This document shows, piece by piece, positions 8,066 through 36,883 of a stretch of DNA of 64,000 bases. Made by a program: the position numbers and the translations under genes. The stretch covers positions 3,618,106-3,682,105 of the forward strand of contig NZ_LR882967.1 in the NCBI RefSeq assembly GCF_904830925.1, in the 5' to 3' direction. Within the stretch, counting starts at the first letter, position 1. The number at the start of each line of letters is the position of its first letter. Source of the DNA: Planktothrix pseudagardhii. Its GTDB lineage: Bacteria; Cyanobacteriota; Cyanobacteriia; Cyanobacteriales; Microcoleaceae. The notes below the pieces were generated by a model. It was not told where the DNA came from and did not search any database. It worked only from the letters and a program-made list of their open reading frames with translations.

Positions 8066-8722
8066 TTATTCTGAAGCAGCATAACCGTATTTTTCAAACC
8101 AATCTCGATATTTCATCTCGATTTGTTGAACTAAATCTGGATCTAAATAATTCACCCAATAACCATTCCTGCCATCGGTAATATGATTACTATGAAAGAG
8201 GTTAGTTTTGTGGTGAACCTCATCTCTATCTCCTTCACTTTCGTAAGATAAATTATCAATTTCATCAACAATAGCCGACGCATTCACAGAACCCACCGCG
8301 CAAAGTTGAGCTAATTCTTCAATAATACTATTCTTGCCAGTCAAAATTCTGTGGTAAGGGACAACTAAATCTGCCACATTAATCCATTGTTCGTGCATTT
8401 GGATCAGATAATCCGCAAATTCAACCGTCGGGGAATCTCCAAATGCTCTCCAATTACTCGCCATTGCATCTCGAATATCTCGATAGGAATATACGATTAA
8501 TGTAGCTTGATCGGCAATGGATTGAACAAAATCATGGATTTTGATCAGTGTATATTCTTTCTCTGGGATTTTTTTATACTTCCAATCTCCTGACCATCCA
8601 CAAGTTAAATTATTTTTAATGGTAGGCGAACTAGAAAGCACAAGGCGAGTCGCGTTATATAACCAAGTGCTTCCTGATCTCATCATTCCCGAAGCCACAA
8701 TCAACTTTGATTCCATTCCCAT
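8066..8722 (-). CDS. Sulfotransferase-family protein (PAPS-dependent type)
   Basis: 218 aa. The N-terminal P-loop-like 5'-PSB motif SGMMRSGSTWLYN is typical of the sulfotransferase fold. It lies in the glycan-modification neighbourhood. Confidence 0.55.
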   Translation of the reverse strand: MGMESKLIVASGMMRSGSTWLYNATRLVLSSSPTIKNNLTCGWSGDWKYKKIPEKEYTLIKIHDFVQSIADQATLIVYSYRDIRDAMASNWRAFGDSPTVEFADYLIQMHEQWINVADLVVPYHRILTGKNSIIEELAQLCAVGSVNASAIVDEIDNLSYESEGDRDEVHHKTNLFHSNHITDGRNGYWVNYLDPDLVQQIEMKYRDWFEKYGYAASE

Positions 8723-8978
8723 AAATCCTTTTTCTCTGGATGCAAGAATCTAAATCAACGGGCGTAAACTGTCGTCACTCCGTTTCTCAATACGCTTTTC
8801 TTGCTGTTATTGGTCAGTCAATTATACCAAAGTATTGTAACTCTTATTGATCATTTGAGAGGGATCCCAGAAAATGAGCAGGTATTTCATCTTTTGGGAT
8901 ATAATTCGATTCTCTATAAAATGACCCATACCTTGACTTTTGATAAAAAACCGCTAAGATAAATTTTGCCTAAATTTA

Positions 8979-10223
8979 TTGAATAAAGACAGATTTATGA
9001 GAATCCTTTTCGTGATTAACTTGCCTTATAGTAGTTTGGAAATATTAGCAGTAGAAGCCATTAAGGTTGTAGAACCTCAAGGCATTGAAGTTTTATGGGT
9101 TTATATGAATCAATATATCGAAATGATGGATACCTGTCCTGAAATGTTAGAATGTGTGGACTTGGTTCATTTTGTTCTGGATGTTCAATCCTTCTCCTAT
9201 GAACAGATTAAAAAAGCTGCTAATATTCGCCCCATTATTAGTAGCTATCACCATTGGAACTTTAAAGAAATACCCCAACATTTAGAGTTAGTTAGCCACT
9301 TATTTTATGTCGCTAGATTTTTAGAATCAGAGGTACAACAGATCACATCAGGAAAAACAACCACCAGTCTTTTATTGAATGGAGTAGATACAAACGTATT
9401 TTTTCCGATTCTCAATCAAAAGCCGCGTGATCATTTTGTAATTGGTTTTTTCGGAACTCAACGCCCGAATAGTCGAAGCGATCGCAAAGGCAGTAGACTC
9501 TTGTTAGAAGCGGCAAAAATTATGGTTGAGTCGGGATACAAACCCAGTTTTTTAATTATGGGTTATGGATGGAAAAATTTAGTCCCCGTGTTAAGAGATC
9601 TGGGTTGTCCCGTCACCTATAAAGTTAGTGTACCGCGAGAAGATGTGCCGAAATACTATCATCAACTCGATCTTTATTTGATCACCTCACGCATCGAAGG
9701 AGGGCCGTTAACCCTTCTGGAAGCGGGGGCTTGCGGAATTCCTGTTATCTCTACTCCCGTCGGTATTGCTCCAGAACTTTTAACCAAACCGGGCTGTGGT
9801 AAACTGTTGTCTGGATTCGAGAGTCAAGAAATAGCAGAAGCGATCATGGATAATATGGAAAATCCTCATATTGCCCAAGAGAGAGCCCAAGCTTTACTTC
9901 AAGAAATCCGCCAATATTGGACTTGGAAAGATACTTATAAAGACTTAGCTAAAATTTATTTTGATCTCTATCAAAAAACGGCTCAACTCTCACAAATTAA
10001 GTCGTCAATCTCTTCTAAAAATAATATTCCTCCCTACCTGAATTTACAACAGGATGCTGTTGTACAACGAAGCATTGCTAGGAATTATGCTTTATTTTAT
10101 TTTGCCTTCTGTCTATACGATCACGGTGAAAAACTAGCAGCTTTAAGGACAGCCTTACCAATTTTACATCAAATCAAACCGATCTATTTTTGGAAGGAAC
10201 TTCAACGGGAAGAACATTGGTAA
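8979..10223 (+). CDS. Glycosyltransferase family 4 (GT-B fold, GT1/GT4 clan)
   Basis: The EAGACGIPVISTPVG motif is the E-X7-E-containing C-terminal signature of GT4 enzymes. The start may be the internal MRILFVINL. Confidence 0.75.
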   Translation: MNKDRFMRILFVINLPYSSLEILAVEAIKVVEPQGIEVLWVYMNQYIEMMDTCPEMLECVDLVHFVLDVQSFSYEQIKKAANIRPIISSYHHWNFKEIPQHLELVSHLFYVARFLESEVQQITSGKTTTSLLLNGVDTNVFFPILNQKPRDHFVIGFFGTQRPNSRSDRKGSRLLLEAAKIMVESGYKPSFLIMGYGWKNLVPVLRDLGCPVTYKVSVPREDVPKYYHQLDLYLITSRIEGGPLTLLEAGACGIPVISTPVGIAPELLTKPGCGKLLSGFESQEIAEAIMDNMENPHIAQERAQALLQEIRQYWTWKDTYKDLAKIYFDLYQKTAQLSQIKSSISSKNNIPPYLNLQQDAVVQRSIARNYALFYFAFCLYDHGEKLAALRTALPILHQIKPIYFWKELQREEHW

Positions 10224-10300
10224 AACCGTGGGATTTGTAACTACTTTGCTAAATTTTATCCTAATTTTGGATACAACTTAAATAAGATTGCTATATCCAC

Positions 10301-11641
10301 TCAATACTTAACCGTAAAAAGACTCAATAAATAAAGGCTCACGCTTTGCTTTTTCTGAGATAGGATATTCGCTAATGTATACCTGTGCTTTTCTAAGGGA
10401 TTAATTAAAACATGAATGATAATAACTGAAGCTAAAAGACTCAGTAATATACTAATTGTTCCTAACCAAAGAATCGATATTTTAAAATGAGATACTATTA
10501 TTAGCCCAATATAAATTGATATTGTATGGGTCAAATAAATAGGATAGGAGAGATTTCCAATATATCTGTCTATTGAATTGTTAAGAGTTAAATGAAATAA
10601 TAGAGGAATGATTATCATCCAACCTAAATGAGAAATCAAATAAGCATAATTCATATTAGTCAGTTTTCCGATTTGCAAGATCCCTAAGTTTATCAGCCAA
10701 AGAATAAACCAAACGAACCCAAAATATAGAATGTAATATTGATTGCTAATTTGTAAGTTTTCAGGTAGAAAATTTTTTAATTTAATTAACCAGCTTGAAT
10801 ACAACCTAAAGCTAAAAATTCCTAGGGCAAACAATGAAAATGCAAACAGAAAAAAATGATGAAGCCAATTGTTAAATCCCATGTATTGATAGAAAAGAAT
10901 ACGGATTGTTAAAGAGAATAACAAATATAGAAATAGTTTTTTGTTACTGAATTTTACGATGCGTGGAGCTAAAAAATAAAATATTAATTCAATAGCCATT
11001 GACCAGGCAACAGGGTCAAGTAAATATTCAACCAGAGGATACTGAGTCTCGAAAATATTAGGACTAATACCGAATGATGAAGGTAAATCATAGTTTAAAA
11101 CAATAAACCAGTTCTGAAATAAAATGATTAAATTAGAAAAAGTTGCAAAACTTATTAATAATACATTAACTATACTATTGTCTGAAAAGGAAAAATTGAC
11201 AAATGGCTCTAATTCTAACCATTCTCCCCACACAATACCGAATATTAAACTAACGGTTATAATCAGGCTACCAATTAACCAATAGGGAATAAAAATCCGC
11301 AAAAATCTGCTCCAATAAAATTCGACTACATTAGAATATTTAGGTAAAATCATTGCCATATAAAAACCCGAAATCATAAAAAATATTTCTACGGCTTCAG
11401 CACCATCAAGCATAACCCACGGAAATACAAGATGGGATTGATTTTCTAAACCATTAGGATTAATATCCAATGATACATGAGCAGCTACAACGCATAACGC
11501 TAAATACAACCTTAATATTCCCATATTGACTGATCCTGAGAGAATTTTGTCTGGTTTAATCTTGATGCTATCATCTATAATATGATATATTAAGGTTACT
11601 GTAAAACAGTAAGCAATCTTGAAAAGCCAATGGAAAATCAA
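10301..11641 (-). CDS. Acyltransferase family 3 (OafA/YrhL-like) integral membrane O-acyltransferase
   Basis: 446 aa with approximately 10 predicted TM helices. The N-terminal MGILRLYLALCVVAAHV with a conserved His is typical of acyltransferase_3. Confidence 0.7.
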   Translation of the reverse strand: MIFHWLFKIAYCFTVTLIYHIIDDSIKIKPDKILSGSVNMGILRLYLALCVVAAHVSLDINPNGLENQSHLVFPWVMLDGAEAVEIFFMISGFYMAMILPKYSNVVEFYWSRFLRIFIPYWLIGSLIITVSLIFGIVWGEWLELEPFVNFSFSDNSIVNVLLISFATFSNLIILFQNWFIVLNYDLPSSFGISPNIFETQYPLVEYLLDPVAWSMAIELIFYFLAPRIVKFSNKKLFLYLLFSLTIRILFYQYMGFNNWLHHFFLFAFSLFALGIFSFRLYSSWLIKLKNFLPENLQISNQYYILYFGFVWFILWLINLGILQIGKLTNMNYAYLISHLGWMIIIPLLFHLTLNNSIDRYIGNLSYPIYLTHTISIYIGLIIVSHFKISILWLGTISILLSLLASVIIIHVLINPLEKHRYTLANILSQKKQSVSLYLLSLFTVKY

Positions 11642-13453
11642 CCTTTAAAATCTAGTTTTGTCTTAACTTTAAAGTTTATTTGGCGTTACTGTTCTGAATA
11701 TCGCTATGCTATTTTATTGTTGCTGTTTTTGATGACAGTTCAGACAATTTTACAAGCGTTAGTTCCGGTTTTGACGGGGAAGTTAGTTAATAGTTTTAGT
11801 TATTCCATAGAGACATGGACAGTACCCGTCTTTATTTGTGCGTATCTAGGTGCAGCTAAACTTACTTCTTATCTTTGCCGAATTGGTGCGGCTGCGGTGC
11901 TAAGTAATACGGCGACACAAGTGATGAAGAAAATTATCACTGAATCTTTTGATAAAGTCCAACATTTCAGTACAGAATGGCATATTGATAATTTTTCTGG
12001 GAGTGTGATTAGAAATATTAACCGAGGAATTTGGGGATTTGACCAGTTAAGTAATACCTTATCGATGTCAGTTTATCCCAGCCTCTTGATGATGGTTTCT
12101 TTAATTGTTATTTTTTTTATTAATGGTTTTTGGATTGGAGTAACTGGATTTGTAGGTTTCGGATTATTCTTGTTGGTCACTTATAATTTATCAACTCATT
12201 ATTTAGCTCAAGGTTTTGAAGAATTTAATCAAATAGATACGGATCTCAATGGTAGTTTATCGGATGTTGTTATCTGTAACAGTGTGGTTAAGTTTTTTGC
12301 TACCGAAGATTATGAAAGCCAAAAATTTGAAGAAATAGCAGAAACCTGGCGAGATAAAAGTCAACGAGTGTGGTGGCGAATTGAAACGGCTTTTTCAGCC
12401 CAAAATCTTTTACTTTGGGTGATGGAAGTGGTCATTATTGGTCTTTCCATTTGGTTATGGTTTAAAGGCATTCGCACCCCTGGGGATGTGATTACTATTC
12501 TCACCAGTTTTCAGATGGCGCAAGGTCAAATGACCACCGTTGGAAATGATCTTCGCTTGCTACAAAAATCCATGATTGATCTTCAAGGATTGATCAATTT
12601 GGATGAAGTCGATGCCCAAATTGTAGACAGTCCAGAAGCCGTTGCGTTAGAAATTAAGGACGGATCAATTGCGTTTGATCAGGTGACATTTCGGTATAAA
12701 AATCAAACCACACCCATCTATGAAAATTTGTCTGTCACCATTGCTGGGGGTGAAAAAGTGGCTTTGGTGGGACATTCAGGAAGTGGCAAAAGTACCTTTA
12801 TGAAATTACTTCAGCGCCTCTACGATATCGAAAATGGTCAGATCACCATTGATGGTCAGAATATTCAAAATATAACCAAGCAAAGTTTACGGTCTGCGAT
12901 CGCCGTTGTGCCCCAAGAGCCCATTCTATTCCATCGCTCGATTGCGGAAAATATTGGTTATGGTAAACCGGATGCGACACAAGATGAAATTGAACAAGCC
13001 GCCCGCCAAGCTTATGCTCATGACTTTATTATGGGCCTACCGGAGGGTTATGAAACCCAAGTGGGTGAGCGGGGAACTAAACTTTCCGGGGGTGAGCGCC
13101 AACGAATTGCGATCGCTCGCGCCATTTTGATCAATTCCCCTATTCTGATTCTGGATGAAGCCACCAGTAGTTTAGATTCTGTTTCCGAAATTCTGATTCA
13201 AAAAGCACTTAATAATCTGATGGCGGGGCGCACAACAATTATTATTGCCCATAGACTTTCTACGATCCAAGCCGTTGACCGTATTTTAGTTTTTTCTCAG
13301 GGTAAGATTATTGAGGAAGGAAGCCAAGAAACTTTATTAGCTAATTCTAATAGCCATTATCGCGTCCTCTATGCTTTACAATCTAATGGTTTTCTGCCAG
13401 AAACACCCGAAGATTCTAATAGCAAAGTTGAGCAACAAGTATTAGTACAATAA
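11630..13453 (+). CDS. ABC transporter, fused permease/ATP-binding exporter (MsbA/type-I exporter-like)
   Basis: Six N-terminal TM helices. Walker A GHSGSGKST, ABC signature LSGGERQRIAIARA and Walker B ILDEATSSLD are present. Confidence 0.85.
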   Translation: MENQPLKSSFVLTLKFIWRYCSEYRYAILLLLFLMTVQTILQALVPVLTGKLVNSFSYSIETWTVPVFICAYLGAAKLTSYLCRIGAAAVLSNTATQVMKKIITESFDKVQHFSTEWHIDNFSGSVIRNINRGIWGFDQLSNTLSMSVYPSLLMMVSLIVIFFINGFWIGVTGFVGFGLFLLVTYNLSTHYLAQGFEEFNQIDTDLNGSLSDVVICNSVVKFFATEDYESQKFEEIAETWRDKSQRVWWRIETAFSAQNLLLWVMEVVIIGLSIWLWFKGIRTPGDVITILTSFQMAQGQMTTVGNDLRLLQKSMIDLQGLINLDEVDAQIVDSPEAVALEIKDGSIAFDQVTFRYKNQTTPIYENLSVTIAGGEKVALVGHSGSGKSTFMKLLQRLYDIENGQITIDGQNIQNITKQSLRSAIAVVPQEPILFHRSIAENIGYGKPDATQDEIEQAARQAYAHDFIMGLPEGYETQVGERGTKLSGGERQRIAIARAILINSPILILDEATSSLDSVSEILIQKALNNLMAGRTTIIIAHRLSTIQAVDRILVFSQGKIIEEGSQETLLANSNSHYRVLYALQSNGFLPETPEDSNSKVEQQVLVQ

Positions 13454-13471
13454 GTACAAGTTTTAACCTCA

Positions 13472-14236
13472 ATGGGGGATGTAGAAATGGAATCTCAAAT
13501 GTATCAAGAAATGATGGAGGTCGAAGACAAACATTGGTGGTTTGTAGCCCGTCGCTCTATTATTGAACAAGTGCTGAAAAGATTAAATTTACCGAAAGAT
13601 GCCGAAATTTTTGAAGCGGGGTGTGGGACGGGCGGCAATTTAGCGTTACTCAGTCGTTATGGACAAGTTTATGGGATGGAATTAGATGAGGATGCCCGAA
13701 CTTTTGCCAGTACCCTTCAAATCGGAAAAATTGAACCCGGTTGTTTACCGAATCATCTTCCCTTTCCTGATCAAAAGTTTGATCTCATCGTGTTGTTAGA
13801 TGTTTTGGAACATTTGCAAGAAGATCAAGCTTCTTTACAAGCCTTATCGACAAAACTTAAACCCTCTGGCTATTTATTAATTACAGTTCCAGCCTTTCCT
13901 TGGCTGTGGACTAAACGAGATGAATTGCTTCATCATAAACGCAGATACACGTTAGAAAATTTACGTTTCATTGTCAGTTCTGCCGGATATAAAATTAATA
14001 CTGTTAATTATTTTAATTTTATCTTATTTCCTTTAATTGCTGGAGTCGGACGGCTGCAAAATTTATTGAATAAAGGCGGGAATGAACAAGCTTTACCTCC
14101 CCTATTGATTAATAAAATATTAACGTTATTATTTGGGTTTGAGCGTCATTTAATTAATCGGGTATCTCTTCCCTTTGGAGTATCAATCTTACTGTTGGCG
14201 ACAACAAACAAGATCAGGATTACTAACTCTCCCTAA
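13472..14236 (+). CDS. Class I SAM-dependent methyltransferase
   Basis: Motif I is EAGCGTGGNLALL. Post-I acidic residues are present and there is a short C-terminal hydrophobic tail. Confidence 0.7.
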   Translation: MGDVEMESQMYQEMMEVEDKHWWFVARRSIIEQVLKRLNLPKDAEIFEAGCGTGGNLALLSRYGQVYGMELDEDARTFASTLQIGKIEPGCLPNHLPFPDQKFDLIVLLDVLEHLQEDQASLQALSTKLKPSGYLLITVPAFPWLWTKRDELLHHKRRYTLENLRFIVSSAGYKINTVNYFNFILFPLIAGVGRLQNLLNKGGNEQALPPLLINKILTLLFGFERHLINRVSLPFGVSILLLATTNKIRITNSP

Positions 14237-14431
14237 AACCTAGATGGTGAGTGTTATCTCAGGGAGAGTTAACGGATTAGCCCTATTGAAACCGAACGGA
14301 AATAGCAGGAGGCAGCCCTAATTTGATATCAATAATGATATCTTTAAAAATCGAAATATAAACGCTTTCCAGCTTATCATTACATTTCTTCGCTAATAAA
14401 ATAGCGTTGAGAACAGCAACCAACAATTTAT

Positions 14432-15622
14432 TAAGCTGTTAAGCATCTAAATAGGGTATAATGAAAAACCAAGTTTAGAAAAATCAATCAAAAGATGCCT
14501 GCTAAAAATCATTTAAATGAAAAGCAAGTAGAGAAACTACAGAAAAGATTGAAAGAGGAAGAAAATGGACAAATCCGAGAAAGAATCTTGATTTTATTAT
14601 TGCTAAATGATGGTAAAAAGCAAAGTGAAATTGCCAAGTTTTTGGGCTGCTCATTAAACAAAGTATGTTATTGGTGTGTACATGGAGACCCTGACAAATT
14701 AGAAAGCCTAAAAGATGAAAGAATGAAAGGAAATTATAGAAAAGCCACAGACAAATATATAGAGATATTATTAGAAACAGTAGAAAAAGAACCGGAAGAA
14801 TTAGGATATGAATTTGGGAGATGGACAGGAGAAAGATTGGCAACTTATTTAGAACAAATCACAGGAATCAAATTAAGTAGTTCACAAGTGAGAAAGATAT
14901 TAAAGGAAAAAAAGTATGTTTATTTGTGGGCAAAGTATAGCTTAGAAGAGAAAAGAGATCCAGAAAAAAGAAAATTATTTAAAGATAAAATAGAAGAATA
15001 TTTGAAAATAGCAAAAGAAAGTCCAGAACAATTACAGGTATGGTTTTGGGATGAAAGTGGATTTAATTTAAGAGTGATAAAAAGAAAGAATTGGTGTAAA
15101 AAAGGGAAGAGGAAACAGATTAGAGGAGACAGGAGGAAAGGAAGAGTTAATGTGATGGGAGGATTGAGGTACTCGGATAAAAAAAGATTTGTAGAATTTC
15201 TGGATAAAGGAAATGCAGATAATTTTTATCAAGTGTTAAAAAGTTTTTATCAAGAGCTAATTTATGAATGGGTATTAGCGGGAAATCAAGCAGAAGAATT
15301 TGTAGAAAAAGGAGCTAAGATCCTGATTATTCTTGACAATGCAAGTTTTCACAAAAAAGAAGAGTACCTAGAAAAAATTAAAGCAGAAATGCCGAATGTC
15401 TATTTAGAATTTCTTCCAGCATATAGTCCAGATTATAATTTAATTGAATTAGTCTGGCATTCAGCTAAAGAATATATAGCTCATCGACTCTTTAAATCAG
15501 TTGATGAGCTAGAGTGTTTATTACATCAGCTTTTAAATGAAGGACAGTTATCTATTAAATGGGGACGTAAACTTAAAAACAAAGGTAATGCTATAATCAC
15601 AGTTTAAATACACAACAGCTTA
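14432..15622 (+). mobile_element. IS630-family (Tc1/mariner superfamily) insertion sequence, copy 1, approximately 1191 bp including flanking TA
   Basis: Sequence identity with the second copy at 35693-36883 starts at TAAGCTGTTAAGC and ends at ...ACACAACAGCTTA. The ends are imperfect inverted repeats (TAAGCTGTT / AACAGCTTA) flanked by TA, the classical IS630 target duplication. Confidence 0.8.
14495..15607 (+). CDS. IS630-family transposase (HTH + DDE/D)
   Basis: 370 aa with an N-terminal helix-turn-helix. The catalytic region contains WFWDESGF, ILDNASFH and YSPDYNLIE, which together resemble an IS630/Tc1 DD(34)E arrangement. It is identical to ORF 35756..36868. Confidence 0.85.
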   Translation: MPAKNHLNEKQVEKLQKRLKEEENGQIRERILILLLLNDGKKQSEIAKFLGCSLNKVCYWCVHGDPDKLESLKDERMKGNYRKATDKYIEILLETVEKEPEELGYEFGRWTGERLATYLEQITGIKLSSSQVRKILKEKKYVYLWAKYSLEEKRDPEKRKLFKDKIEEYLKIAKESPEQLQVWFWDESGFNLRVIKRKNWCKKGKRKQIRGDRRKGRVNVMGGLRYSDKKRFVEFLDKGNADNFYQVLKSFYQELIYEWVLAGNQAEEFVEKGAKILIILDNASFHKKEEYLEKIKAEMPNVYLEFLPAYSPDYNLIELVWHSAKEYIAHRLFKSVDELECLLHQLLNEGQLSIKWGRKLKNKGNAIITV

Positions 15623-15851
15623 GCCAGTTAGACGAGATAGAAGGTAAAGCATCTAATTGGCTTAAAAGGGGTAAGTTAGCAACGGAGAAGATGGGTGAGA
15701 GAAATTCAATAGATGTCATTGTCTTATCTTTAAGTCCCTATGGTTTAATGGTTGGATTGCTAAGAATAGAATTTTAGCATATAATGAAAAAAACGTAAAC
15801 TCGGTTATTTTCTGCTGATCGGAGTTAATCTTAATAAATCATGACAGAATC

Positions 15852-16106
15852 GTGATCTCAGCAGTCCTAGACGTTATTAACCCAGATTATGCCCATTTTC
15901 TCCTTTCCTCAAACTCTACTTTGATGACCACCAGCAAAATAATATTACTAGAACAAAAGCTGCCTAATGTTCTAACCAAACCCCTGAATTTAATTTTATT
16001 ATTTATTGCTTTATTTTGCCTATCTTTTGGATTTGTGACTGTATTTTTGCTCTTAGAACCTGTGATTACCGCGATTTTAGCTTGGATAATCTTTGCTGAA
16101 CATTAG
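15852..16106 (+). pseudogene. Remnant of an EamA/DMT-family transporter gene (C-terminal fragment)
   Basis: 84-aa ORF ending ...LEPVITAILAWIIFAEH, which looks like the last EamA helix. The surrounding sequence has no matching upstream half. The stop codon overlaps the inverted repeat of the adjacent IS. Confidence 0.4.
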
Positions 16107-17249
16107 ACATCTCCAAAATAGAAAAAAGGAGGGGTAAAAAGATGATAAAATTAAATTTTACCCCGGATTAGAGATGAGTAAATTAAGAGACTATCTGGAC
16201 AAGAATCCCCAGCAAGCAAAAAGGCTATTAGGGATGGAATATGAACAGATGATAGAACTCATTCAAGCTGCGGAGTTATTAGAAGAAGAAAAACGACAGG
16301 AAAAAGAAAAAACTAAAATCAGGTTGATTAAAGCAGGTGGGGGTCGTCGGCAGAAATTATCTGTGGAGGAACAAATCTTACTGACTCTAATTTATCTGCA
16401 TCAAATGCCCACATTTCAAATGTTAGGGTTACAGTTTGAAGTCAGTGAATCAACAGCGAATGATATTTTCCATAACTGGATAAAAATCTTGAGAGAATTA
16501 CTACCAGCGAGTTTGCTAGAGCAAGTAAAAAAAAACGAGAGTGATTGGGAGTGGGTAGAAAAAATTCTGGTGGAATTTGAGTTAGTAGTAGATAGCTATG
16601 AACAGCCCAGGGAAAGACCAACAGACAATGAAGAGCAGAAAAAATATTACTCAGGAAAGAAAAAGACACATACCTTTAAAAATCAAGTCATTGTCATGCC
16701 AAATGGAAAAGAAATAGTGGATGTAGCTGTGGGTTATACCGGAGCAACAAGTGATCTGAAATTGTGGAGAGAAAGAAGCCAGGAATTGGGGAATAATCAA
16801 AAATACAGAGGGGATAAAGCTTATGTAGGAGAAACAGCAATTAATACACCACATAAGAAACCGAGGAATCAAGAGATATCGGCTGAAAAGCAAGAAGAAA
16901 ATCGATTAAAAGCTAAACAAAGGATTGTAGTCGAACATTTAATAAGACTGATAAAAATTTATCGAGTTGCTTCAGAAAGATTTCGGTTAAAGAGGCAAAA
17001 TTATGAAGCAATAATCTTGACAGTATGTGGATTAATAAGATGGCGAATAGGAGCGATTGTATTACCATCTAAGAATTGCCCAGAATTCTTTTGAGAAATG
17101 ATTGCATATCAGAGATAAAATTCATTAGTTATTATTAATGTGACTGAAAAAGCCTATGAATCCGTTACTTTTGGAGAAGCCGGCACAGGAGTGCTAGAGA
17201 TTCCAAAAGTAGCGATAGAGGGCATTTGGAGATTTTCGGAGATGTCTAA
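16103..17249 (+). mobile_element. IS element (IS5-family / Harbinger-like, DDE_Tnp_4 transposase), approximately 1147 bp
   Basis: The left end is TTAGACATCTCCAAAAT at 16103. The right end GGAGATGTCTAA at 17238-17249 is preceded by TTTTCG, which is the imperfect reverse complement TTAGACATCTCCGAAAAT. A single transposase ORF lies inside. Confidence 0.6.
16174..17094 (+). CDS. DDE_Tnp_4-type transposase (IS5 family, PIF/Harbinger-like)
   Basis: 306 aa with an N-terminal HTH-like region. YYSGKKKTHTFKNQ and the downstream D/E blocks are typical of the DDE_Tnp_4 nuclease domain. Confidence 0.7.
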   Translation: MSKLRDYLDKNPQQAKRLLGMEYEQMIELIQAAELLEEEKRQEKEKTKIRLIKAGGGRRQKLSVEEQILLTLIYLHQMPTFQMLGLQFEVSESTANDIFHNWIKILRELLPASLLEQVKKNESDWEWVEKILVEFELVVDSYEQPRERPTDNEEQKKYYSGKKKTHTFKNQVIVMPNGKEIVDVAVGYTGATSDLKLWRERSQELGNNQKYRGDKAYVGETAINTPHKKPRNQEISAEKQEENRLKAKQRIVVEHLIRLIKIYRVASERFRLKRQNYEAIILTVCGLIRWRIGAIVLPSKNCPEFF

Positions 17250-26862: not shown

Positions 26863-27501
26863 ATGAGTGCATCCAGTAACCCTGATAATCTGATTAATAA
26901 CCCAGTGAGTTCCTCTGTTCCTTTAGAAGAAAATTCAGGTAAACCACTTTCTTATGTTGCCCAGGAAGATATCATTTATCGTGCTTTTGATCGCAAAACC
27001 GTCTGTCGGGTTTTAAGCCAAGCTCATATTTATGTTTCCATTCGCTGGACAAGAACTCATCTTTATATTGGCATTCCCAGCACCGTTTTAGCGGCTGTTG
27101 CTGGTGTGCAAGCCATCTCCAGTTTAGGCGGAAATTATCAATTAGTGGCGGTGATTATTCCCGTTTTAGTCGCTATTCTTGCACCGTTATTAACCTTTTT
27201 AGATCCCAATGGTAAAGCGAATACCCATTTAGTCGCCTCCAGGGTTTATGAACAAATGGCCGATCAATATGATTCATTTTTACTCAAATGTCGTTTAGAA
27301 CCCCGACCCATCGAGGAAGAACTGAATGATTTAGTTCAGATAAATTCTGTGTATAGTGAAAGTAAAAAATCCCTTCCGGCTTGTCCTGAATGGGCGTATC
27401 AAAAAGCCCTCCGCACCGAAAATGACATCCAAAAACTGATTCCTGATGAGATCAAGAAAGCTGGAGGGTATGACAAATATATTGCCGATGCGCCCTCTTG
27501 A
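26863..27501 (+). CDS. Small 2-TM protein with SLATT-like organisation (soluble N-region, two adjacent TM helices, helical C-region)
   Basis: 212 aa. The TM helices IGIPSTVLAAVAGVQAISSL and LVAVIIPVLVAILAPLLTFL are separated by a short loop. The post-TM ...NTHLVASRVYEQMADQYDSFL resembles the conserved H...Y...L helix of SLATT domains. This is my recollection of the family pattern, not a database hit. Confidence 0.35.
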   Translation: MSASSNPDNLINNPVSSSVPLEENSGKPLSYVAQEDIIYRAFDRKTVCRVLSQAHIYVSIRWTRTHLYIGIPSTVLAAVAGVQAISSLGGNYQLVAVIIPVLVAILAPLLTFLDPNGKANTHLVASRVYEQMADQYDSFLLKCRLEPRPIEEELNDLVQINSVYSESKKSLPACPEWAYQKALRTENDIQKLIPDEIKKAGGYDKYIADAPS

Positions 27502-27622: not shown

Positions 27623-28315
27623 ATGGGTAACACACAATCTGATTTAGAAGGATTAGAAATTACACCAGGGGAAATCAAACATTGGAGTGGTATTAATCAG
27701 AAGTTACTCTACCGACCAGCTACCGTTAAAAAATTATTAGGGGAAGGTTTAAAAACCTTTTTTATCTTTTTATTATTATTAATGAGTTATTGGATTTGGA
27801 GTTTAATTTTTCCAGAACTCTCTTTAATTTTAATCATAATTTATTTAACCATTGGGGGACTATTAATTCTTGAGGATAGTGTAAAACTGTGGAATACCTT
27901 AACCCGTCCCCAATTCGTTAAACTGTGTCATCAAGTGGAGCGTTATAACGCCATTGTTAAAGCCTTAAAAATTTATGATCAACTCGATGCAATAGCCCAT
28001 CCCCCTGGAAAATTAAACAATCGAGAAGCTATTATTGCAGCTTTAAACTTAATTAGAACAGAATTAATTAAAGGATTAAAAATAGAACGAACCTTGAAAA
28101 AACATCAAAAATTTATTCAGCAATATTCCGAACTTTTTGATCCAAATTTCACCGCCTTAACGGTCTTACAAACAGAAAAACCCACAACAGAACAAGGAAG
28201 ACTCCTGTATCAAGCCTTTGAAATTGCTTCAGACGTTCATCAACAATTAAAACAACTTCAGGAACAACAGATTTCCCCTAATCGCAAGCAACAGACAATC
28301 AGAAACAAGGAATAG
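27623..28315 (+). CDS. Small 2-TM hypothetical protein with a C-terminal helical / coiled-coil region
   Basis: 230 aa. TM helices FFIFLLLLMSYWIWSLIF and LILIIIYLTIGGLLIL. It is co-directional with the upstream SLATT-like gene and the downstream module. Confidence 0.35.
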   Translation: MGNTQSDLEGLEITPGEIKHWSGINQKLLYRPATVKKLLGEGLKTFFIFLLLLMSYWIWSLIFPELSLILIIIYLTIGGLLILEDSVKLWNTLTRPQFVKLCHQVERYNAIVKALKIYDQLDAIAHPPGKLNNREAIIAALNLIRTELIKGLKIERTLKKHQKFIQQYSELFDPNFTALTVLQTEKPTTEQGRLLYQAFEIASDVHQQLKQLQEQQISPNRKQQTIRNKE

Positions 28316-28567: not shown

Positions 28568-29716
28568 TTGAGTGAGATTTGTACCCCAGTCGCACCAGGT
28601 CAACCGTTGACACCTTACCAGAAAATTGGTTTGGAATCAGTCACTCGTCTACATGGCGGACGGGATGTGGTACTGGCGATTGACCTAACGGAAAGCGTCG
28701 GTTTGAATGATGAAGGTCATTTGCGTTTACGTCAAATTGTTGAAGATAGCTTAAAATCAGGAGACACCGTTTATGTTGTGCCTTTTGCTACAAAAACTAA
28801 CCCTTCAACACCTGAGATCAACCCTTTAACTTTAGAAACTGCAATTCAGTTTAAAGGGAAAGCCGATGTAGAAAAGATTTTACAATTAATTCCCTTTCAG
28901 CCTGACCTGAGATTACAAAATACCGATATTCAACAAGCTGAGTTAACGATTTATCAGGGTTTAGCAGATCTCAATCAATGTCGTTTAACCCAGAATCAAC
29001 CGATTAAACCGCAATCGATTGTTTGGATTACCGATGCACCGTTATTTACAAAATCCCCTGCTACCTCTGAAGAATGGACGGAAACCCCAGCAGACAGTCC
29101 TTTCCGAATAGCAACTTCTCCAGAAACACAACAGCGCCAAGAGTGGTTAAATCAATTACCTTTAAATCAGCGATCGCTTCCGATTAAAACTCAAGAACAG
29201 CGACAATATAACCTAACAATTGTTGATATTCCTCCGAATGTTCAAGAGTTCTGTACTCCTACCCCCGGACAGAAAGAAACTTGTTTAGTTTCTCCTTATT
29301 TATGGAAACAGTTATGGCTACCCGGATTAATTTTAGGAATTTTAATTCTTGCTAGTGTCGGGATGGGAATTAAAATTTATCGTTTGAATAAAAAATGGAA
29401 ACTGATGGTTAATTTTGATGATGATGATCAGGTAGCAGATCAAACCTGCTCTCTCGGTAATCATCAAAGAATTGCCATTGGTGAATATGAATCTGGTTGT
29501 CAGGATACCATTGATTTACCTGGAGCAGAAGTTCGGGCTTATTTAGTCAGAAAAGGAGAAAAACTTTATTTAGAACCGACGAACAATAGCCGGATTGAAT
29601 ATCAAGACAAAATTGTCGATCAAAAAATCCAAATAACCAGAAGTAGGATAAATTTTAATTGCCCTAATCCTAAACCTCCCAAAAACTACAGATTAACCAT
29701 TAAAATTCAAAAATAA
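28568..29716 (+). CDS. vWA-domain (MIDAS DxTxS) protein with a single TM helix and a C-terminal FHA-like domain
   Basis: The N-terminal ...DVVLAIDLTESVGLND... fits the vWA MIDAS motif (DxS/TxS). A Pro/Thr/Gln-rich linker follows, then the TM helix LWLPGLILGILILASVGMGI. The C-terminal approximately 100 aa (...RIAIGEYESGCQDTIDLPGAEVRAYLVRKGEKLYLEPTNNSRIEYQDKIV) follows the FHA pattern. The ORF begins with a non-ATG (TTG) start in the track. Confidence 0.5.
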   Translation: MSEICTPVAPGQPLTPYQKIGLESVTRLHGGRDVVLAIDLTESVGLNDEGHLRLRQIVEDSLKSGDTVYVVPFATKTNPSTPEINPLTLETAIQFKGKADVEKILQLIPFQPDLRLQNTDIQQAELTIYQGLADLNQCRLTQNQPIKPQSIVWITDAPLFTKSPATSEEWTETPADSPFRIATSPETQQRQEWLNQLPLNQRSLPIKTQEQRQYNLTIVDIPPNVQEFCTPTPGQKETCLVSPYLWKQLWLPGLILGILILASVGMGIKIYRLNKKWKLMVNFDDDDQVADQTCSLGNHQRIAIGEYESGCQDTIDLPGAEVRAYLVRKGEKLYLEPTNNSRIEYQDKIVDQKIQITRSRINFNCPNPKPPKNYRLTIKIQK

Positions 29717-32700: not shown

Positions 32701-32965
32701 TAATTTAGGACATGAAGGAGTTATTAATCGTTTTCGTCGAAAAATTCAGGAAAGTCTAACTAAGACTGGAAGTTTACCAACATCGGTTAATGACGATTCT
32801 GCCGCTTTAGTAAAGCGTGGAGAAAATTCCAGAGATTTTAACCAAAGTGATGACAGTTTAGAGGCAAAATTAAGGCAGCTAAAACAAAAATTAGATCAGG
32901 GGTTCATTACTCAAAAAGGATATGAATTTGAGAAAGAAGAAATTCTACGGAAATATGGTTGTTAA
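29738..32965 (+). CDS. Giant tubulin/FtsZ-superfamily GTPase (FtsZl1-like) with a long alpha-helical extension and a C-terminal SHOCT-like motif
   Basis: 1075 aa. The N-terminal glycine loop RTICIGLGGTGRDVLMRI is T1/phosphate-binding-like. GSLCGGTGSGMFLDVAY contains the tubulin/FtsZ signature GGTGSG. NYQK is followed by a T7-like region. The remaining approximately 650 aa are Glu/Lys/Gln-rich helical. The C-terminal ...LRQLKQKLDQGFITQKGYEFEKEEILRKYGC matches the SHOCT short C-terminal domain pattern. Confidence 0.7.
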   Translation: MQANDYQLQGVQRTICIGLGGTGRDVLMRIRRLIVEKYGDLTELPIVSFVHIDTDKTATQSASLKTGNTYRGVDLSFRDSEKVNAILTSAEVTNFVRGVEQRSKSNRSGPFDHISRWFPPQLLRNIRAVEEGAKGIRPVGRLAFFHNYQKIKTVIETAAKRTMGHEATLLKARLKLEPGLNIFVIGSLCGGTGSGMFLDVAYSLRKSYGDKGTQLLGYLVVSPQLYSNASYMNANTYAALKELNYYSSAGTRFEACYDMQNLVIVQEPRAPFDYTYLISNETNGEYTILEQQKLCNVIAHKIALDFIGELAPVAKGMRDNLLNHLIQSDNHPRPNTQGYLTFGLAAIYFPREIIVKIALNRISLKLVNFWLNGEGQSPDPQLIIEQFLIKYNWYSDLIQRDGFKERLAGGVQEGSKNFSTTLTKFREKLIQKINECRNSEDRLSLKNNLLRELREQFRKVLPGETETTRGIWLTRLMQVQPLIAQQLKNHINEFIEELMTPSNPKFSTKSVRDWLEAMQTELNTYQRQLEEEISQGEGMKKNEDLEKKLRDLEQNMDEIEQRIELPILNRKNADIQRLARNVVQSIMQLIQHNFKLAVTQETLKIVNDLQKYVRDCSTEVATFSRMIENLKTNYEKEQNDLINSNFNEMSGEAIFAQEDIEECYQTLLPDLEFRSALVLVSKDITEASGVGESICYLINRTTGEQLKTEIDQKIDGEFGSRSNQIVKSVIKRFIQKYSGSIRPTRLGQIIEQAEPLLRLNVSDPYFSNLSDKRKEFIGFKDTDEVEVNQFKMTLTRDLGIDPTALKPTQAEDQILIVREYGGFPLRLINGLEEIRNHYIREQNKDGSTCHSDYQIPFTDIIPPDARLMEELEDVFYPCLAFQLIVKNPKNQGLEFQYYDNLRDYYYTAELNPIWNQALEELANHREMTKTLNELLEEEINQIRQNPDLWKSQYLPRLQQFVDYVDNLPESNPNYLYKSTVVGTPGTINNLGHEGVINRFRRKIQESLTKTGSLPTSVNDDSAALVKRGENSRDFNQSDDSLEAKLRQLKQKLDQGFITQKGYEFEKEEILRKYGC

Positions 32966-33027: not shown

Positions 33028-34599
33028 ATGTTGTTTCCTTCTTTTCCTCCTTTACCGCCTTTGTTAATCATTTTGATCGGGATATTTGTGTTTATTCCCT
33101 CGATCATTACCCTCTATTATCGCTGGAATCTTTATCAACATTTAACCACTCAAGCGAATAAAATTTATCAGATTATCAATAAACGGGAGCTTGAACTCCC
33201 GCCTGCGATTGTACAAGTTTTAGAACAGAGTTTTGCAGAATCCAGCCAAAATTTAGAACAAGTGAACACGGCGGCTTTGATTGATCAAGCCTACAGCCAA
33301 GAAAAGGTTTTAGGGAAATCCTGCGAACAAATTGAATATTGGTGTCGAATTATTCCGAATTTACTCCTGGCTTTTGGATTAATTGGAACCTTTATTGGAA
33401 TTACGGTCAATTTGGGTTCTTTGAGTCAAACTATTAGTCAAAGTCAAGCAACGGATGTTAGTCAGTTAGTAGAGGAATTAAAACAACCCCTAGAAGGAAT
33501 GGCGATCGCTTTTATTACCAGTTTAGCTGGGTTATTGTGTAGTGCATTATTAACTGTTTTAAACTTTTTATGGAATACGAGTCTAGCGAAATATCGTTTA
33601 ACGGTTTCTTTAGAACATTACCTCGATAATATTTATTATTCATCCTTAAATGGTCAAACTCGGTTGGATAAAGTTGTTAAAGGAATGTCGAGTGAATTTA
33701 AAGATTTTTTAGATCGATTTGGTATTACTGTTAGAGATGCGGTGGAATCTGCCATGAGAGATAATATTCATCAAATTACAAAAGCGAATGTAGAAGCGAG
33801 TGAATTAGCTCTAAAAGTCTATAGTCAATTATCCAATGCTACAGGAACGTTAGAAAGGGGAGCTAGAGAGTTTCAAACCGCCACAGAAAGTTTTACAAAT
33901 GCGGTACAAGTGAGTAACACAACGGCTGATAAATTAGAACAAGTTGCTCAAGGTTTTGAACAAAGTGAATTTCCTAAACAATTATCAATAATCGCTACTG
34001 ATTTTGGAGAGAATCAAAAGAATTTTTCTGACTCAGCATTCGGTTTATTTCAAACGGTTAAATCTTTGGAAACAATATTAAATCAACTTCAGATCTTTAC
34101 AGAGCAGTTATTAAAAACGGAAACAAAATTAAGTGAACTTAATCAAAGTTCCTTACAAGTTTTAGAGTTAAATCAAATTAATCAACAATCCCTAGTTGAA
34201 ATTATTCCTCAACTGCAACAAGGAGGAAAAAGCTTGGAGTTAAGTTCTCAAACGTTAGAGAATATCCAAAACAAACTTATTGATAAATCCGATCATTTAG
34301 AAGGTATTCATAAACAATTAGAAACCTTAGTTAAAACCCTTAATAGTTATACAAATACAGTGAATTTTGAACTAGAATCTTTAAGTAAAATGATGAATAA
34401 GCTCATTAAAGAACAAACAAATAGTAGTCAGTCCTATTCACAAGTCTTAGCGGATAAATTAGAAGCAGCAATTAAACCTAATATTAAGTATATTATTGAG
34501 ATGAAATCTGATTTATCTCAGGTACTTAAACTCTTAAAAGAACAAAGCGGTAATCCGGGAATTAAGAAAAATAAACCAAAATTTTGGGAAAGTAAATAA
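33028..34599 (+). CDS. MotA/TolQ/ExbB-family proton-channel protein with a long C-terminal coiled-coil tail (ZorA-like architecture)
   Basis: 523 aa. The TM core has the family motif LLLAFGLIGTFIGITVNLG and LEGMAIAFITSLAGLLCSALLTVLN (compare LGLLGTVIGI / A..TT.GL of MotA/ExbB). Approximately 330 C-terminal residues are Gln/Ser/Asn/Glu/Leu-rich and predicted helical. Confidence 0.65.
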   Translation: MLFPSFPPLPPLLIILIGIFVFIPSIITLYYRWNLYQHLTTQANKIYQIINKRELELPPAIVQVLEQSFAESSQNLEQVNTAALIDQAYSQEKVLGKSCEQIEYWCRIIPNLLLAFGLIGTFIGITVNLGSLSQTISQSQATDVSQLVEELKQPLEGMAIAFITSLAGLLCSALLTVLNFLWNTSLAKYRLTVSLEHYLDNIYYSSLNGQTRLDKVVKGMSSEFKDFLDRFGITVRDAVESAMRDNIHQITKANVEASELALKVYSQLSNATGTLERGAREFQTATESFTNAVQVSNTTADKLEQVAQGFEQSEFPKQLSIIATDFGENQKNFSDSAFGLFQTVKSLETILNQLQIFTEQLLKTETKLSELNQSSLQVLELNQINQQSLVEIIPQLQQGGKSLELSSQTLENIQNKLIDKSDHLEGIHKQLETLVKTLNSYTNTVNFELESLSKMMNKLIKEQTNSSQSYSQVLADKLEAAIKPNIKYIIEMKSDLSQVLKLLKEQSGNPGIKKNKPKFWESK

Positions 34600-34733
34600 A
34601 TTTAGGACTGATGCTGGAGATTCTCGGCTAGATCAGGAGATTGATCCTGAGTTCAGGTTTTCATATTAGTTACCCGGTTTCTTGGGTACAAGTTGGTAAG
34701 TTTTGTAATTATTATTATTAAAGGTTTAAAATT

Positions 34734-35456
34734 ATGCGTCGTCCGACTCAAATTAAAAATTCATCGGAAGATTTGAATGTCTGGCAAGCATTTACAGATT
34801 TAATGTCTAATGCTTTTTTAATTATGAGCTTGTTTTTATTGTTAGCCATTGTTAAATCATCGTTATTAACTTCTAATTCAAAAGAAAAAGATCAGAAAAT
34901 TAAAGGCTTAGAATTAACAGTTGGTTCATTAAAAAACGAAATTGAACGATTAAAAGCTCCACCAGTCATTGTGATTAAAGATTCTGATCGAGATGCACAG
35001 GGGCGATCTTTAAAATTTGAGACAGGTAAGGCAGATTTACCGGAAGGGTTGCGAATTTTTATTGAAGGGAATGTGGTGGAAAAATTAGAGGAATTTTCTA
35101 AAGTTTATCAAGGTTATGTAGTGGATGTAATTGGACATACTGATGGTCAAGAAACCTTTAATCCTGCTAGTAATTTAGATCAAATCTTAGAACAAGTTGC
35201 ACAGGGGAACCAACCTGTTAAAAATCTCAAACCCGGTTCCAATGCTGATTTAGGATTAATGCGCTCTTTAGCAGTTGTTAAAAAACTCCAAGCTATTCAA
35301 GAACAAGGTCGTTTAAAGGGGTTAAAATTTAGAGCTTATTCAGCCGCACAATTATTTTTACCTTCAGGACAATATGCGTCGCAAAATCGTGCTTCTGATG
35401 AAACAAGAAGACGTATCGAAATTCGCTTTACTCCCCCAGGAGTTGAACAATATTAA
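34734..35456 (+). CDS. MotB/OmpA-family partner: single TM with conserved Asp, C-terminal OmpA-like peptidoglycan-binding domain
   Basis: 240 aa. The N-terminal WQAFTDLMSNAFLIMSLFLLLAIV resembles the MotB/ExbD plug-TM segment (Asp in FTDLMS). The C-terminal VIGHTDGQE...NADLGLMRSLAVVKKLQ...RRRIEIRF matches the OmpA_C consensus. Confidence 0.65.
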   Translation: MRRPTQIKNSSEDLNVWQAFTDLMSNAFLIMSLFLLLAIVKSSLLTSNSKEKDQKIKGLELTVGSLKNEIERLKAPPVIVIKDSDRDAQGRSLKFETGKADLPEGLRIFIEGNVVEKLEEFSKVYQGYVVDVIGHTDGQETFNPASNLDQILEQVAQGNQPVKNLKPGSNADLGLMRSLAVVKKLQAIQEQGRLKGLKFRAYSAAQLFLPSGQYASQNRASDETRRRIEIRFTPPGVEQY

Positions 35457-35692: not shown

Positions 35693-36883
35693 TAAGCTGT
35701 TAAGCATCTAAATAGGGTATAATGAAAAACCAAGTTTAGAAAAATCAATCAAAAGATGCCTGCTAAAAATCATTTAAATGAAAAGCAAGTAGAGAAACTA
35801 CAGAAAAGATTGAAAGAGGAAGAAAATGGACAAATCCGAGAAAGAATCTTGATTTTATTATTGCTAAATGATGGTAAAAAGCAAAGTGAAATTGCCAAGT
35901 TTTTGGGCTGCTCATTAAACAAAGTATGTTATTGGTGTGTACATGGAGACCCTGACAAATTAGAAAGCCTAAAAGATGAAAGAATGAAAGGAAATTATAG
36001 AAAAGCCACAGACAAATATATAGAGATATTATTAGAAACAGTAGAAAAAGAACCGGAAGAATTAGGATATGAATTTGGGAGATGGACAGGAGAAAGATTG
36101 GCAACTTATTTAGAACAAATCACAGGAATCAAATTAAGTAGTTCACAAGTGAGAAAGATATTAAAGGAAAAAAAGTATGTTTATTTGTGGGCAAAGTATA
36201 GCTTAGAAGAGAAAAGAGATCCAGAAAAAAGAAAATTATTTAAAGATAAAATAGAAGAATATTTGAAAATAGCAAAAGAAAGTCCAGAACAATTACAGGT
36301 ATGGTTTTGGGATGAAAGTGGATTTAATTTAAGAGTGATAAAAAGAAAGAATTGGTGTAAAAAAGGGAAGAGGAAACAGATTAGAGGAGACAGGAGGAAA
36401 GGAAGAGTTAATGTGATGGGAGGATTGAGGTACTCGGATAAAAAAAGATTTGTAGAATTTCTGGATAAAGGAAATGCAGATAATTTTTATCAAGTGTTAA
36501 AAAGTTTTTATCAAGAGCTAATTTATGAATGGGTATTAGCGGGAAATCAAGCAGAAGAATTTGTAGAAAAAGGAGCTAAGATCCTGATTATTCTTGACAA
36601 TGCAAGTTTTCACAAAAAAGAAGAGTACCTAGAAAAAATTAAAGCAGAAATGCCGAATGTCTATTTAGAATTTCTTCCAGCATATAGTCCAGATTATAAT
36701 TTAATTGAATTAGTCTGGCATTCAGCTAAAGAATATATAGCTCATCGACTCTTTAAATCAGTTGATGAGCTAGAGTGTTTATTACATCAGCTTTTAAATG
36801 AAGGACAGTTATCTATTAAATGGGGACGTAAACTTAAAAACAAAGGTAATGCTATAATCACAGTTTAAATACACAACAGCTTA
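35693..36883 (+). mobile_element. IS630-family insertion sequence, copy 2, identical to copy 1 and in the same orientation
   Basis: 35693-36883 matches 14432-15622 base for base across the compared sequence and carries the same TA-flanked imperfect inverted repeats. The flanking sequences differ on both sides. Confidence 0.8.
35756..36868 (+). CDS. IS630-family transposase (identical to 14495..15607)
   Basis: The 370-aa translation is identical to copy 1. Confidence 0.85.
   Translation: MPAKNHLNEKQVEKLQKRLKEEENGQIRERILILLLLNDGKKQSEIAKFLGCSLNKVCYWCVHGDPDKLESLKDERMKGNYRKATDKYIEILLETVEKEPEELGYEFGRWTGERLATYLEQITGIKLSSSQVRKILKEKKYVYLWAKYSLEEKRDPEKRKLFKDKIEEYLKIAKESPEQLQVWFWDESGFNLRVIKRKNWCKKGKRKQIRGDRRKGRVNVMGGLRYSDKKRFVEFLDKGNADNFYQVLKSFYQELIYEWVLAGNQAEEFVEKGAKILIILDNASFHKKEEYLEKIKAEMPNVYLEFLPAYSPDYNLIELVWHSAKEYIAHRLFKSVDELECLLHQLLNEGQLSIKWGRKLKNKGNAIITV

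Follow-up and report, generated by a model that had tools for sequence, protein, structure and literature searches.

To our knowledge, the ZorA-ZorB (ZorAB) complex has so far been known solely as the sensor of one anti-phage system, Zorya. ZorA has three transmembrane (TM) helices, a filter made of a TM2 Thr and a TM3 Ser, a kink Pro and a long amphipathic tail, while ZorB combines a TM Asp with a dimer-type OmpA-like peptidoglycan-binding domain, and the two genes are adjacent with the A subunit first. All of these features are shared by a pair of genes located in a 64,000-nucleotide stretch of the Planktothrix pseudagardhii contig NZ_LR882967.1 (positions 3,618,106 to 3,682,105), hereafter the window. 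The structures used for comparison were those of type I Zorya from E. coli (8QYD) and Shewanella (8VVN) and of type II from Sulfuricurvum (8VVI). The closest known relatives of the pair are ZorA and ZorB, even when the tail is removed from the comparison. On the other hand, its ZorA-like and ZorB-like scores lie far below the curated cut-offs, which indicates that the pair forms a separate family; the tail, of about 340 residues, is shorter than that of E. coli ZorA, which starts near residue 223 of 729 (deletion boundaries, PMC11946911); and ZorC/D, ZorE and ZorF/G are replaced by an upstream tubulin-like GTPase and a probable vWA-TM protein. The genes are also inherited vertically across cyanobacteria, in contrast to Zorya, which is scattered through defence islands.

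The other closely related system is the FtsZl1 operon. The FtsZl1 family was defined by Makarova and Koonin in 2010, who proposed a role in membrane remodelling and described operons with vWA proteins, GTPases, kinases and "OmpA family" proteins (PMC2875224). Additional file 5 of that paper lists Ava_1847 (COG2304), Ava_1848 (FtsZl1), Ava_1849 ("B7") and Ava_1850 (COG1360), the same operon in Cyanothece (Cyan8802_4287-4290), Microcystis (MAE_58760-58800) and Trichodesmium (Tery_1709-1705), and the Deinococcus genes DR_0538-0536, given as FtsZl1, a "MotA/TolQ/ExbB membrane protein" and an OmpA family protein (PMC2875224). In Additional file 6 B7 is merely a "membrane-associated protein", the main text makes no mention of MotA, and OmpA-like proteins are treated as beta-barrel or transport proteins; the paper predates both Zorya and the 5:2 motor structures (PMC2875224). 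The four genes of the window are orthologous to Ava_1847-1850 and stand in the same order, with identities of 57, 59, 47 and 49% for genes 1 to 4, respectively. The preliminary description of this DNA had suggested a variant or hybrid system; the operon is not newly seen, as it stands in the 2010 tables (PMC2875224). A 2023 study of the FtsZ/tubulin family set Tubulin_2 proteins aside as divergent and uncharacterised. Literature searches on PF13809, on ZorAB in cyanobacteria and on the locus tags of the cassette returned no paper linking Zorya with the FtsZl1 operon and none that cites the tags, and in the library searched none was found joining Zorya and "tubulin-like"; the papers retrieved with Zorya and FtsZ show no link in their titles and abstracts, and in the likeliest of them FtsZ occurs in the reference list only. 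The gene neighbourhood has therefore been known since 2010, and the reading of the B7/COG1360 pair as a ZorAB-type long-tailed motor appears to be new.

The ZorA-like and ZorB-like subunits

The two open reading frames (ORFs) of the pair were found where the preliminary description had placed them. They are genes 3 and 4 of the cassette, and their products, orthologues of Ava_1849 (family B7) and Ava_1850 (COG1360), have the following domain anatomy.

33028-34599, + strand: gene 3, ZorA-like subunit, 523 aa, ATG start
33055-33123, + strand: TM1 of gene 3, aa 10-32, predicted from hydropathy
33349-33417, + strand: TM2 of gene 3, aa 108-130, predicted from hydropathy
33490-33573, + strand: TM3 of gene 3, aa 155-182, predicted from hydropathy
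33577-34596, + strand: helical cytoplasmic tail of gene 3, aa 184-523, about 340 residues
34734-35456, + strand: gene 4, ZorB/MotB-like subunit, 240 aa, ATG start
34782-34862, + strand: TM helix of gene 4, aa 17-43, carrying Asp22 (34797-34799)
34860-34960, + strand: periplasmic helical stalk of gene 4, aa 44-75, linking the TM helix to the OmpA-like domain
34959-35438, + strand: OmpA-like peptidoglycan-binding domain of gene 4, about aa 76-235

Fourteen ZorA models of PADLOC match the ZorA-like protein, the best being ZorA1 (E=1.4e-12, residues 95-415). Among NCBIfam models only those of ZorA subfamilies were matched, ZorA_2 with 30.9 bits (cut-off 100) and ZorA_1 with 23.4 bits (cut-off 190). 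When 37 diverse members of the family were searched, the commonest NCBIfam models were those of the four ZorA subfamilies (ZorA_1 to ZorA_4), which in falling order matched 19, 18, 13 and 9 members, and no MotA, ExbB or TolQ model appeared in the top 25. Pfam MotA_ExbB stayed sub-threshold, at 17.9 bits versus a gathering score of 22.9. E. coli ZorA constructs were the best matches in a single-sequence search of the PDB, and the family profile placed the Shewanella type I ZorA first (8vvn_C, 8.9e-11), the remainder of the list being composed of coiled-coil noise and further ZorA entries. An AlphaFold2 (AF2) model built with 31 homologues, confident over residues 1-200 (predicted local distance difference test, pLDDT, about 80-90), gave a Foldseek list led by the ZorA chains 8vvn_D and 8qyd_A, with ExbB, TolQ and PomA below them. 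For a like-for-like test the tail was removed, and profiles of residues 1-210 only were compared with a single genuine type I ZorA, encoded on a Zymomonas plasmid together with an EH-signature ZorC and a helicase ZorD, and with E. coli ExbB, TolQ and MotA. ZorA scored 23.7-28.5 bits as against 4-12 bits for ExbB, TolQ and MotA, and the corresponding hhalign values were 89-94% for ZorA versus 9-69% for the other three, MotA being the weakest at 9-11%.

The residues of the ion path are conserved. P110, T121 and S165 of the ZorA-like protein align with P136, T147 and S184 of E. coli ZorA, where Thr147 and Ser184 form the ion-selectivity filter beside ZorB Asp26 and Pro136 is a kink residue whose mutation alters activity (PMC11946911). 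G117 and T121 show no variation, not even in the most diverse of the ZorA-like alignments, and P110 and S165 are kept in at least 90% of the sequences. The MotA-family TM core described earlier is thus borne out by three TM helices with the aligned P110, T121 and S165.

The tail follows TM3. Its first 80 membrane-proximal residues are highly conserved (LEDYLDNIY...TRLDK...FL-RFG-TVRDAVES), and a second motif, S313-x-F-P-x-x-L-S, lies at mid-tail. Close relatives have tails of 303-464 residues; in the diverse set the range widens to 208-582 residues, possibly including truncated sequences. The proposal that this is a long helical tail was examined by periodicity, and in 31 of 31 family members the hydrophobic peak exceeded the 95th percentile of shuffled sequences, mostly at 3.63 residues; the same analysis gave 3.60 residues for the Zymomonas type I ZorA tail. 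The E. coli ZorA tail is a right-handed bundle (PMC11946911), and a period greater than 3.6 residues fits a bundle of this kind. In the AF2 model residues 184-506 are predicted to be helical throughout, with low confidence as a monomer and with breaks near residues 272-278, 312-314 and 418-423.

For the ZorB-like protein PADLOC ZorB1 gave E=5e-9, while NCBIfam ZorB1 reached only 15.3 bits, far under its cut-off of 400. The B-subunit profiles scored 10.7 bits with ZorB and 5.4 with MotB, TolR and ExbD being negative, and the family profile placed ZorB first in the PDB (8vvn_B, 8.9e-5). OmpA was not detected by Pfam in this protein. With its AF2 model (mean pLDDT 81.5) Foldseek retrieved exclusively OmpA-like peptidoglycan-binding domains at probability 1.0, among them PA0833, the type II ZorB (8vvi_B, rank 2), MotS, PomB, MotB, TagL, Pal and OmpA. 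W17, F20, D22 and L23 are invariant in 28 homologues and T21 is nearly so, D22 corresponding to the Asp that is essential in MotB and ZorB (ZorB D26); the motifs GHTD, N-A-D172-L-G-L-M-R177 and RRRIEIRF are also invariant, with the D172/R177 pair included. The preliminary description had read this subunit as MotB-like with a plug. The TM Asp and the OmpA-like fold stand, while the plug was not confirmed, the helix that follows the TM segment looking like a stalk; ZorB itself has no plug (PMC11946911). The stalk ranges among the homologues from almost nil to about 100 extra coiled-coil residues, which may reflect different membrane-to-peptidoglycan distances. Its sequence matches that of PCC9214_02581 from Planktothrix tepida with 100% identity.

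The pair can also be set against the other motors of the superfamily. ExbB-ExbD and TolQ-TolR have in common with the ZorA-like protein the superfamily of TM cores, the three-TM topology and the TM2 G-x-x-G-T motif, and they appear among the lower-ranked structural matches; they differ in the short C-terminus of the A subunit, the B subunit without an OmpA-like domain and the weaker profile scores. MotA-MotB and PomA-PomB have a B subunit with the same architecture of TM Asp and OmpA-like peptidoglycan-binding domain. MotA has a four-TM layout with a FliG-contacting loop, whereas for the A subunit of the window three TM helices are predicted, followed by a tail. The profile searches, Foldseek, NCBIfam and the tail-less test thus agree on a ZorA/ZorB-like pair, as had been proposed, and a canonical ExbBD or TolQR identity is ruled out by the NCBIfam tally over the 37 members and by the tail-less profiles.

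Linkage and inheritance of the four-gene cassette

The cassette consists of a vWA-like gene, the Tubulin_2/FtsZl1 gene, the ZorA-like gene and the ZorB-like gene, all on the + strand and separated by gaps of 21, 62 and 134 nt. Homologues of the ZorA-like protein amounted to 463 matches, all cyanobacterial, and clustering at 50% gave 591 representatives at E<1e-3; relatives occurred in no fewer than 240 species-level genomes, the 80 best of which were all cyanobacterial. The linkage counts refer to 83 cyanobacterial loci. The genome scan used the closer ZorA-like alignment, the most diverse one being too unconserved for this purpose; the 80 loci that it returned are all cyanobacterial, and it could not reach other phyla. 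The preliminary description had suggested looking in cyanobacterial genomes for the same pair beside tubulin-like genes, and such a gene lies directly upstream of the ZorA-like gene in 68 of the 83 loci. The ZorB-like gene directly follows the ZorA-like gene in 82 and the vWA-like gene is found upstream in 65.

Over 54 loci the pairwise divergences of the four proteins are correlated (Spearman 0.72-0.91), and the median intergenic gaps are 17, 71 and 54 nt. This congruent divergence, together with the short gaps, indicates that the cassette has been inherited as a unit. The identity of the ZorA-like relatives tracks taxonomy. In Anabaena variabilis the four genes lie beside psbEFLJ and ndhCKJ, and the unicellular thermophile Parathermosynechococcus lividus keeps all four with a ZorA identity of only about 30%. 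A search of the PLSDB plasmids with the ZorA-like family gave only two weak matches, one of them the genuine type I Zorya of Zymomonas, and the cyanobacterial family was absent.

A related module is found on Deinococcus plasmids, where a tubulin-like gene is followed by one for a 411-aa ZorA-like protein and then by an OmpA/ZorB-like gene. The 411-aa protein reached 96.4% in hhalign to the cyanobacterial family profile and matched PADLOC ZorA1 at 1.6e-7. No recognisable vWA gene was found at the Deinococcus plasmid loci. In the mobilizable plasmid 2 of Deinococcus deserti the module occupies positions 6393-17125 of the retrieved locus; genes for hypothetical proteins of 418 and 108 aa stand upstream, in the place of the vWA gene, and an 859-aa protein, described as LRR (PMC2875224), and a beta-helix repeat protein are encoded downstream. 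This layout indicates that the accessory genes vary between phyla while the core of tubulin-like, ZorA-like and OmpA genes is kept.

Upstream partners and surroundings in the window

The two genes that precede the pair have the following features.

28568-29716, + strand: gene 1, membrane protein with a probable vWA domain, 382 aa
29315-29383, + strand: TM helix of gene 1, aa 250-272, predicted from hydropathy
C-terminal end of gene 1, + strand: domain with conserved Cys residues, about 105 aa
29738-32965, + strand: gene 2, tubulin-like GTPase of the FtsZl1/Tubulin_2 family, 1075 aa
29780-30838, + strand: Tubulin_2 domain of gene 2, aa 15-367 (PF13809, E=3.2e-109)
Downstream of the Tubulin_2 domain, + strand: C-terminal extension of gene 2, about 700 aa

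The gene 2 product is the orthologue of the FtsZl1 protein Ava_1848. GLGGTGRD and GSLCGGTGSGMFLD are invariant in 54 orthologues, as is GGTGSG, the tubulin GTP-binding signature, and a PDB sequence search with the protein returned no related solved structure. Its C-terminal end, LEAKLRQLKQKLDQGFITQKGYEFEKEEILRKY (aa 1042-1073, window 32861-32956), weakly matches the Pfam families DMAP_binding (E=4.5e-4) and GvpG, and the extreme C-terminus is poorly conserved among orthologues. We take this end to resemble a SHOCT-type short oligomerisation motif.

The N-terminal part of the gene 1 product is probably a vWA domain, judging from the residue pattern and from its orthologues. D39-x-T41-x-S43, T119 and D156 are strictly or almost strictly conserved in the family and resemble a MIDAS pattern, and many orthologues carry the NCBI name "VWA domain-containing protein"; Ava_1847 was placed in COG2304/vWA (PMC2875224). 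The protein of the window has no Pfam match, neither it nor its family profile matched the PDB or NCBIfam usably, and just 4 of 23 orthologues gave a match to VWA_2 of Pfam, with E of about 0.1. Of the upstream pair proposed in the preliminary description, a tubulin-like GTPase and a vWA-FHA protein, the former is solid and the vWA assignment probable, while FHA was supported by no search, the C-terminal 105 residues included. Cys residues are invariant on either side of the TM helix: C229 and C239 precede it, and C294, C311 and C365 follow.

Zorya components besides ZorA and ZorB had no PADLOC match in the seven ORFs of the cluster, and ZorC/D, ZorE and ZorF/G were found neither there nor by Pfam among eight flanking ORFs, in agreement with the claim that the pair stands without ZorC, ZorD and ZorE. 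By Pfam these flanking ORFs belong to housekeeping families, among them DnaJ, DnaK, PadR and CCB1 as well as a histidine kinase and a sugar-kinase-like protein. In the cluster ORFs neither Pfam nor PADLOC revealed a nuclease or any other known effector domain, and the ORFs inspected around the pair included none for TonB, TolA or flagellar proteins. Six flanking ORFs of two unlinked loci had no helicase or EH-signature match; apart from this, the scan of the related loci covered the cassette genes and three Anabaena neighbours.

Just upstream of the cassette lies an SLATT_4 gene (26863-27501; NCBIfam 94 bits, cut-off 55; PADLOC "2TM effector" 1.8e-20), followed by a 230-aa ORF (27623-28315) with two hydrophobic segments and without a family match. 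The vicinity of SLATT_4 showed neither SMODS nor any other partner gene. Both genes were considered as members of the system and rejected, as they occur in 0 and 1 of the 83 related loci, respectively. A small ORF of about 82 aa, called A82 in Anabaena (4708-4956 of the Anabaena locus), recurs upstream of the cassette or the pair in 26 of the 83 loci, including loci of Moorena and Hormoscilla that lack adjacent tubulin-like and vWA-like genes; it has no family match and is not in this window. Membership was likewise rejected for a downstream 868-aa protein and for the 281-aa and 82-aa Anabaena ORFs, which are not in the window and occur in only 19-26 of the 83 loci.

Downstream of the cassette an IS630-family element of 1191 bp (35693-36883), with a DDE_3 transposase ORF (35756-36868) and imperfect terminal inverted repeats, starts 240 bp after the stop codon of the ZorB-like gene and leaves the cassette uninterrupted. 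A second, 100% identical copy is found at 14432-15622. The insertion is recent, since the element is missing at the same site in a related Planktothrix metagenome-assembled genome.

A possible envelope motor coupled to FtsZl1

We favour, with moderate confidence, a ZorAB-type envelope-anchored motor with a cell-biological role coupled to FtsZl1. By homology to ZorAB, MotAB and ExbBD, the two proteins would assemble in the inner membrane as an ion-driven rotary unit, ZorA5:ZorB2, anchored to peptidoglycan through the OmpA-like domain of the ZorB-like subunit. The C-terminal helices of the ZorA-like subunits, of about 340 residues per chain, would assemble into a long cytoplasmic bundle of up to about 50 nm when fully extended, a length that the helix breaks in the tail model make only an upper bound. 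Upon a change in the envelope, proton flow via Asp22, Thr121 and Ser165 would turn the ZorA-like subunits around the peptidoglycan-fixed ZorB-like subunits, and the tail would hand the signal or torque to the tubulin-like GTPase, held at the membrane by the probable vWA protein. The outcome could be control of GTP-dependent filament assembly for membrane or envelope remodelling.

Several points weigh against this proposal. In absolute terms the similarity to ZorA is modest, falling below the curated cut-offs; the monomer model of the tail has low confidence and breaks, and the tail may fold back instead of extending. The lengths of the ZorA-like tail, the ZorB-like stalk and the tubulin-like protein do not co-vary, the stalk with the tail included. 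The topology of the gene 1 product is unclear as well, since it has no signal peptide, yet a strongly basic stretch (RLNKKWK) follows its TM helix, and these signals leave its periplasm-facing domain ambiguous. The contact of the tail with FtsZl1 or the vWA-like protein and the cellular output are steps that we infer. In Moorena, Limnospira/Arthrospira, Lyngbya, Limnoraphis and some Hormoscilla the pair lies more than 10 kb from any tubulin-like gene, and the unlinked Oscillatoriales pairs adjoin housekeeping genes such as hisS or an rRNA methyltransferase; Arthrospira nevertheless keeps both the FtsZl1 orthologue and the ZorAB-like pair. Sphaerospermopsis kisseleviana NIES-73, which holds the full four-gene cassette, has a second, divergent ZorAB-like pair (482 and 244 aa; positions 10001-12308 of the retrieved locus) among housekeeping genes, with no tubulin-like, vWA-like or Zorya effector gene near it, from which it follows that cyanobacteria carry orphan long-tailed ZorAB-like pairs. 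Encoded apart from the tubulin-like gene in some lineages, the pair perhaps acts apart from it too.

The main rival reading, which we consider unlikely, is that of an anti-phage variant, in which the ZorAB-like pair, like its counterpart in Zorya, would sense phage attack at the envelope and the tail would activate FtsZl1 and the vWA-like protein as an effector replacing ZorC/ZorD, with filaments that block infection or arrest the cell as a possible output. The closest characterised relatives are all anti-phage ZorA/ZorB proteins, and FtsZl1 is patchy outside cyanobacteria, linked to vWA proteins, Ser/Thr kinases, GTPases and LRR/TPR proteins and plasmid-borne in Deinococcus, Thermus, Meiothermus and Nostoc punctiforme; in the window the cassette is flanked by the SLATT_4 2TM gene and an active insertion sequence. 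However, the vertical inheritance of the cassette among housekeeping genes, here and beside psbEFLJ and ndhCKJ in Anabaena, argues against a typical mobile defence system, as do the congruent divergence, the identity that tracks taxonomy and the presence in so many species-level genomes. The absence of the family from PLSDB plasmids, the lack of a nuclease or other known effector domain in the cluster ORFs and the SLATT gene that is found at none of the related loci point the same way.

That the pair is an independent envelope motor, serving peptidoglycan or outer-membrane homeostasis or surface motility and merely syntenic with the FtsZl1 and vWA-like genes, is distinctly improbable. The unlinked pairs of several Oscillatoriales lineages and the orphan pair of Sphaerospermopsis would be explained in this manner, and many FtsZl1 operons of other phyla are without MotA/MotB-like genes. 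Against it stand the fixed order and short gaps in about 65 of the 83 loci, retained at about 30% identity in a unicellular thermophile, and the recurrence of the adjacent tubulin-like, ZorA-like and OmpA genes in Deinococcota, a distance over which mere synteny is unlikely to last. An ordinary ExbBD, TolQR or MotAB pair misread as Zorya-like is scarcely credible: although MotA_ExbB is the sole Pfam match to the TM core, and a sub-threshold one, and ExbB and TolQ appear lower in the Foldseek list, the C-terminus of about 340 residues, the OmpA-like domain on the B subunit, the negative TolR and ExbD scores, the lack of any NCBIfam ExbB, TolQ or MotA match and a tail-less profile that favours ZorA by more than 15 bits all speak for ZorA and ZorB.

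The proposal of a motor coupled to FtsZl1 can be widened, tentatively and with some doubt, to one in which ZorAB-type complexes are general transducers of the envelope state whose tails plug into different cytoplasmic machines. The output here would be the FtsZl1 polymer, both in cyanobacteria, where the vWA protein would serve as the membrane anchor, and on the Deinococcus plasmids.

The function of FtsZl1/Tubulin_2 has been unsettled since 2010, and the ZorAB-like motor gives it a concrete candidate partner, characterised by a tail, peptidoglycan anchoring and a proton path through Asp22. Carriers of the cassette include the bloom-formers Planktothrix, Microcystis, Dolichospermum and Trichodesmium, and some carriers, such as Anabaena variabilis ATCC 29413, we believe to be genetically tractable. 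The locus suggests that long-tailed 5:2 motors have roles beyond the recruitment of the effectors ZorC and ZorD, the latter a nuclease. If the coupling proposed here is true, the locus would provide the first example of a cytoskeletal filament coupled to a proton-driven 5:2 rotary motor, and possibly an older context from which Zorya defence took its sensor.

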